Positions 29,876 to 30,178 of a stretch of DNA of 64,000 nucleotides are shown here, piece after piece. The DNA comes from Candidatus Nanoarchaeia archaeon (GTDB lineage: Archaea > Nanobdellota > Nanobdellia > Pacearchaeales > GW2011-AR1): the NCBI GenBank assembly GCA_028713045.1, contig JAQTOY010000001.1, positions 1,523 through 65,522 on the forward strand, read 5' to 3'. Positions within the stretch are counted from its first letter, which is position 1. The number at the start of each line of letters is the position of its first letter. The position numbers and the translations under genes are program-made. The notes under the pieces were generated by a model. That model searched no databases. It saw only the letters and a program-made list of their open reading frames with translations, and was not told the origin of the DNA.

Positions 29876-30178
29876 ATGTCAAGAGCAATAGACAATTGGC
29901 TCGGGGTTCCAGCCGTTCTAGAAACTGAATTTGGAAATGTGGATGGGACCGTTAAATTTGGAATAAGAATACCCCTGGCTCCGGGAACAACTCCTTTGCA
30001 GGAACGTTCACTAGATTCAATTGAGATGATTAGAAGAGAACGTCCAGATTATTGGTTTGTTAATAGACCTCAATCAATAAAAGTAAGATTGCTTACCTAT
30101 GAGCGGTATGATCCAGATACAATAGTTGGAAAAGCTGAAGATGTTACAAGATTTAAATATACTTTAAGGAGAAGGTAA
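29876..30178 (+). CDS. hypothetical protein encoded between groES and groEL
   Basis: 100-aa ORF tightly packed (starts 2 nt after the groES stop, ends 5 nt before the groEL ATG) with ggagga SD; R/P/G-rich composition differs from the host. Confidence 0.5.

Follow-up and report, generated by a model that had tools for sequence, protein, structure and literature searches.

A small gene of an uncharacterised archaeal protein family lies between groES and groEL in a Nanoarchaeia genome

The groESL operon is among the most stereotyped operons known, and the composition of the translation and RNA-processing apparatus of DPANN archaea is largely inferred from model archaea. Many Woesearchaeota and Pacearchaeota are reported to possess GroEL/ES in addition to thermosomes (PMC8204110). 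GroEL/ES are thus already described in these lineages; an intervening gene in their groESL operon was not found described, and a full-text literature search of a limited collection returned no description of a gene between groES and groEL. The two flanking genes of the locus analyzed here are, like the bacterial-type groESL genes of Woesearchaeota, Pacearchaeota and Methanosarcina, ordinary Cpn10 and Cpn60 genes.

We analyzed a window of 64,000 nucleotides (the whole stretch of DNA under study, ~32% GC) from a Candidatus Nanoarchaeia (DPANN) MAG. The 100-aa ORF that the original prediction had placed between groES and groEL was detected there, with PF00166 and PF00118 genes on its two sides (Table 1), and is called X below. 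Its distances from the neighbors had been given as 2 and 5 nt and are in fact 1 nt on the groES side (29875) and 4 nt on the groEL side (30179-30182), while a Shine-Dalgarno-like motif is present for the site that had been proposed for X. The C-terminal Arg-Arg-Arg codons of X (AGG AGA AGG, 30167-30175) are part of the purine-rich motif preceding groEL. Database records name the groEL product chaperonin GroEL of Candidatus Nanoarchaeia archaeon, and the record whose protein is identical to X, from a MAG labelled "Candidatus Nanoarchaeia archaeon", annotates it as hypothetical. The identical groES-X-groEL order was detected in two independent Logan assemblies from different runs, so the arrangement is not an assembly artefact, which the original prediction had named as one way in which it could fail.

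Table 1. Features of the groES-X-groEL locus, in window coordinates
Feature	Position	Strand	Description	Source
Putative archaeal TATA-box region (TTTTATATAA / ATTTATATAA)	29570..29589	+	~27 nt upstream of groES ATG	read from sequence
groES (Cpn10)	29599..29874	+	91 aa; PF00166, E=1.2e-23	ORF list
GGAGG, Shine-Dalgarno-like, within groES 3' end	29862..29866	+	9 nt ahead of X ATG	read from sequence
X, ORF between groES and groEL	29876..30178	+	ATG start, 100 aa	ORF list
Purine-rich AAGGAGAAGG, Shine-Dalgarno-like site for groEL	30166..30175	+	overlaps last X codons	read from sequence
groEL (Cpn60, group I chaperonin)	30183..31790	+	535 aa; PF00118, E=1.5e-79	

The TATA-like region upstream of groES is conserved in a relative with 95% identical GroEL (L014) and is the putative groES promoter, with a TATA-like element at 29570-29579 from which a leaderless or near-leaderless groES-X-groEL transcript would start. 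X would have no promoter of its own and would be transcribed as the middle cistron of this mRNA, its translation potentially coupled to that of groES through the short gap and the upstream GGAGG, and the last X codons would supply the ribosome-binding site for groEL; transcription and translational coupling of X are read here from spacing only. As the middle cistron of such a transcript, X would be expressed under the high, stress-inducible chaperonin regime.

The groES upstream region (29540..29599) additionally contains the stretch AGAAAATTTTAAATAC(C/T)CTTTTAATGAATATTTTTTATATA, conserved with L014 and not with more distant relatives, which may include a heat-shock operator. A near-identical 15-mer, AA(T/A)TTAAAATGTCAA, occurs at the groES start (29591..29605) and at the X start (29868..29882), and both proteins begin with Met-Ser; the shared 15-mer is probably chance or a common translation-start context. 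We considered it as a repeat flanking X and rejected this, as it brackets groES rather than X and is within the chance expectation for AT-rich DNA. Directly upstream of groES is a block with two genes of wyosine-family tRNA modification, TYW3 (26253..26840, minus strand) and a TYW2/Trm5-type methyltransferase gene (28621..29481, minus strand), bracketing an Orn/Arg decarboxylase gene and a 217-aa gene with no family match (27967..28620). Elsewhere in the window, Rfam detected a 109-nt tRNA (54 bits; 2295..2403, minus strand), absent from the ARAGORN output; most probably it is an archaeal tRNA with an intron.

X is a real gene that encodes a protein. A codon model trained on long ORFs from the window gave its annotated frame a log-likelihood of 0.35 bits per codon, close to the 0.357 +/- 0.095 of the reference genes, and all five alternative frames came out negative. 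The original prediction had described an R/P/G-rich composition differing from the host. Arg does make up 13% of X against 4.4% in a reference set of 56 window ORFs, and Pro 7% against 3.5%, but Gly is not enriched (6% vs 6.6%), and the codon usage and GC3 (0.23 vs the host mean of 0.241) are host-like; the higher overall GC of X follows from its Arg- and Pro-rich composition. An open frame of 100 codons is improbable by chance in 32% GC DNA.

A word-indexed search with X returned one homologue only, at 46% identity, and HMMER, run exhaustively against 1.84 billion representatives, detected 43 cluster representatives of the X family at E<=1e-3, 21 of them at E<=1e-10, all 70-135 aa long and with full-length matches. 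The family alignment (A2) shows the conserved motifs W..P..L, G.VKYGIR.P..PG..PL.E, P.YWFV, KVRL and G.G.D..F.Y.I.K, all present in the window X, which the A2 HMM scores at 1.7e-36, X itself having seeded the family. Most members are basic (median pI 9.4), with a few acidic ones at pI 4.5-5.4. The ten clusters that were looked up are all metagenomic and unnamed, nine being singletons and one having two members. The family is rare and uncharacterised, and every informative context is archaeal (DPANN-type). The only return of a genome-collection scan with X was a spurious 22-residue match on a Verrucomicrobiales contig (L011), which was discarded.

The structure prediction that had been proposed for X gave a confident, mostly-beta model: AlphaFold2 with the family alignment reached pLDDT 94.9 and pTM 0.86. 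The model consists of six long beta strands and a short helix at the N terminus, and its Pro/Gly-rich loop (residues 31-57) is ordered. Foldseek with this model returned no significant match in the PDB (best E 0.18, TM-score 0.43, a de novo designed barrel) and nothing at E<=0.001 in BFVD. Neither the window X nor any of 45 family members matched Pfam or NCBIfam, and PHROGs likewise gave no match for X or for family members. Neither the sequence nor the profile search of the PDB produced a significant match, and X relatives were not found in IMG/VR.

The hypothetical-protein annotation of X and the lack of a match in any family library would agree with a non-functional chance open frame or a decaying remnant. 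This reading is effectively refuted by the family members (homologues at 23-50% identity with in-frame indels), the high pLDDT of the AF2 model and the frame-specific codon signal. Homologues exist and the annotated frame scores as coding, the reverse of what the original prediction had named as speaking against it; its suggestion of a novel groESL operon member was borne out, X being a genuine unannotated gene.

Seven other distinct contexts were recovered for X homologues, mostly ribosomal-protein and exosome operons. In L024 the homologue lies between L44e (PF00935, 1.9e-6) and S3Ae (PF01015, 1.1e-17), its junctions being an overlap of 4 nt and a gap of 1 nt, and in L001 it overlaps the start of the ribosomal protein L13 gene. 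In L012 the gene order is Pop5, DUF3850, PsmA (proteasome alpha), an unknown gene, SBDS, X, Rrp4, Rrp41, Rrp42 and RpoK, and L013 likewise has X between SBDS and Rrp4. The homologue overlaps a 271-aa gene followed by replication factor C (RFC) genes in L004-L007 and lies upstream of PheRS alpha in L008; the L010 context was uninformative. Embedding in a ribosomal-protein operon was thus found for the L024 and L001 homologues, but not for the window X or those of L004, L008 and L010, and SBDS, Rrp4, Rrp41 and Rrp42 were all absent from the window. X is a tightly operon-embedded, housekeeping-type gene, whose recurrent partners are translation and RNA-processing genes.

None of these seven contexts contains a chaperonin gene, which answers in the negative the proposed check whether homologues also sit inside chaperonin operons. 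When the window and all retrieved loci were scanned with the X-family HMM, each locus had a single copy, and no copy lay near another GroEL gene.

Two of these loci deserve separate mention. The 271-aa gene of L004 (564..1379), overlapping the end of the X homologue, has a weak PHP_C match only (E=0.0013) and may encode a divergent protein of the PHP/RNase P p30 kind. L013 has three extra small ORFs (81, 81 and 125 aa; 1274..2123) between Rrp4 and Rrp41, absent in L012 (6003), so that here too small genes have entered a conserved operon of these archaea. The longest of the three, with 125 aa, carries an X-like GIGVRIPSAG...PFYFV motif and was considered as a distant X paralogue, but was not accepted (hhalign probability 15%).

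The window GroEL has many DPANN relatives, the best matches being labelled Pacearchaeota, Woesearchaeota or Nanoarchaeota, and the content of the groES-groEL gap was compared among them. Where GroEL is 95% identical (L014, L015, L019-L021), the gap is occupied by a single ORF of 85 aa that is unrelated to X and has one strongly hydrophobic segment; in L014 and L015 its junctions match those of the window, with 1 nt separating it from the groES stop and 4 nt from the groEL ATG. At 80% GroEL identity (L016), two ORFs (104 and 87 aa) with one hydrophobic segment each are followed by a 46-nt untranslated spacer before groEL, and at 78% (L018) there is one soluble ORF, again unrelated to X. At 71% (L022, L023) the gap holds no gene and groES abuts or overlaps groEL, which supports the earlier view that the extra gene makes the window operon non-canonical. 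The junction geometry, TAA-N-ATG on the left and 4 nt on the right, is common to the window, L014 and L018, and all ORFs in the slot show coding-type codon usage in the annotated frame only.

The groES-groEL junction is therefore a clade-specific variable slot, which each of the clade members that we examined fills with one or two small ORFs. The occupied slot appears to be a derived trait of the sub-clade including this organism, because the relatives with 71% identical GroEL lack the insert, and the occupant has apparently been exchanged since the lineages with 95% identical GroEL split, because their gap ORFs are unrelated to X. In the DNA alignment of the window and L014, similarity extends through the promoter and groES to its stop and resumes at the groEL ATG, the ORF between them not being alignable; the two groEL genes differ at 217 of 1608 nt, mostly at synonymous sites. 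The direction of the slot events (relocation or replacement) is read from four lineages that have the slot and two that lack it.

Several possible relationships among the occupants were considered and rejected. The slot ORFs of relatives that have a hydrophobic segment share a single-TM architecture, but their BLASTP similarities (E=0.28 and E=0.019) are confined to that segment and do not establish homology, and X has no detectable homology to the L018 ORF (E=2). The M[ST]RA start common to X and the 104-aa L016 ORF is too weak, its 8/12 nt being the background maximum. An origin of the slot by duplication of the groEL 5' end was likewise unsupported: the first 12 nt of X after the ATG match groEL at 8/12, a match like this is seen for 7% of the other ORF starts of the window, and the other slot ORFs reach only 5-6/12.

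L016 has a chaperone supercluster (1..7608) with the order thermosome, TrmB, groES, ORF, ORF, groEL, hsp20, grpE and dnaK, in which the group II chaperonin (thermosome) is 24% identical to GroEL and the TrmB-family regulator is on the opposite strand. Just downstream of groEL in L014 (2505..4496), two PIN-domain toxin genes flank a DUF2238 gene; the partner of one toxin is a VapB antitoxin, that of the other an 83-aa ORF that has no annotation. DUF2238 is kept in the window (34525..35130), where the intervening genes differ (Exo_endo_phos, CDP-alcohol phosphatidyltransferase, PHP, CarS).

The position of X in a tightly coupled groESL operon, together with some small ORF being kept at the junction in all four slot lineages examined, is what one would expect if X were a cofactor, a regulator or an obligate abundant client of GroEL, co-expressed stoichiometrically with GroES and GroEL; moreover, the archaeal exosome superoperon, in which X homologues reside, includes a chaperone gene (prefoldin beta). 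However, the seven other contexts are without a chaperonin, the slot ORFs of the closest relatives are unrelated to X, three of the relatives' slot ORFs being predicted single-pass membrane proteins, and X has no similarity to GroES or any solved co-chaperone structure, so that we consider a chaperonin-linked role unlikely. The location of the homologues and the unrelated ORFs in the closest relatives argue against the dedicated co-chaperone or client that had been put forward for X. A divergent GroES duplicate was rejected as well (A2 and the GroES alignment A7 compared by hhalign, probability 0.3%, with no Pfam or Foldseek support), PF00166 giving no match to X at E<=1. On present evidence X is probably not a new chaperonin cofactor, and a co-chaperone is improbable. 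Similarly doubtful is a reading in which selection keeps a translated gap, for instance tuning the GroES:GroEL ratio by coupling, with the identity of the ORF largely irrelevant and X just its present filler here, whether or not it retains a function. The four lineages with non-homologous ORFs filling the gap from stop to start, the similar junction geometry and the coding-like codon usage of all slot ORFs would agree with it; yet X belongs to a conserved family with a confident fold and must hence do something in its own right, the gap of L016 contains two ORFs and an untranslated spacer, and relatives without any spacer exist.

The slot content differs between genomes with 95% identical GroEL, indicating fairly recent exchange, and groEL of the L014-type relative is closely followed by toxin-antitoxin pairs, both of which would suit a selfish insertion (mobile-element cargo, an addiction module or a viral remnant), as the original prediction had also entertained. 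But no direct or inverted repeats flanking X and no integrase or transposase near it were found, its neighbors are housekeeping genes, its GC3 and codon usage are host-like, IMG/VR, BFVD and PHROGs hold no X relatives, and the homologues are single genes inside housekeeping operons. We regard a mobile origin of this kind as very improbable.

Taken together, a slightly better than even case can be made for a composite explanation, in which X is a translation- or RNA-processing-associated small basic protein that was relocated into, or replaced within, the clade slot and has no dedicated chaperonin function. X could serve as a structural component or as a binding protein in the ribosome, in ribosome biogenesis or in the RNA-processing machinery; this guilt-by-association role is the most likely one for X because its homologues are packed into translation and RNA-processing operons. 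Taken alone, the assignment to the ribosome or an RNP is tentative and somewhat short of even: the function is read purely from gene neighborhood in the seven other distinct contexts, themselves heterogeneous, and no fold or sequence match in Pfam, NCBIfam, PDB or Foldseek points to RNA or ribosome binding. The position of X would then reflect gene relocation or replacement in a clade-specific slot, with no chaperonin-specific adaptation. Against this composite explanation, a small ORF is present in the slot of every clade member examined, and the occupants could accordingly have a chaperonin-related role. We also suggest, as a possibility that we hold to be rather unlikely in its full form, that X founds a lineage-specific ribosome- or RNP-associated family with a fold new among solved structures and, separately, that the junction of this Pacearchaeota-like clade is a hotspot of gene exchange or gene birth, by which small proteins of any kind, soluble as well as membrane-bound, come under the chaperonin/heat-shock regime.

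A variable slot for unrelated small proteins between groES and groEL is an unusual operon architecture, and the clade that carries it provides a natural experiment for translational coupling, small-protein gain and cassette-like replacement in reduced DPANN genomes. X additionally flags an unannotated family with a confident predicted fold and no significant match among solved structures, as judged by Foldseek only. Found repeatedly inside ribosomal and exosome operons, this family is a candidate new component of DPANN translation or RNA processing.

Compared with known systems, X homologues are integral, tightly packed members of the archaeal exosome superoperon and of ribosomal-protein operons in other DPANN-type contigs; X itself is not among the described components of these operons, has no Pfam or NCBIfam model, and was not matched by Foldseek to any chain of a solved exosome or ribosome. 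The X family matched no known archaeal ribosomal protein, either by sequence model (Pfam, NCBIfam) or by PDB structure, and the window X sits outside an exosome superoperon, unlike its homologues in L012 and L013. GroES/Cpn10 and the phage co-chaperonins of the T4 gp31 type resemble X in size (~100 aa), in being beta-rich with a long loop and in being encoded next to groEL; GroES and gp31 structures are not among the Foldseek PDB matches of X, which does not show the GroES-like beta-barrel fold with a mobile loop. In the canonical bicistronic groESL operon groES abuts groEL, as in L022 and L023, whereas the window has a 303-nt ORF between them, and the groESL operons of the window and of its relatives with GroEL at least 78% identical carry one or two inserted small ORFs of varying identity.
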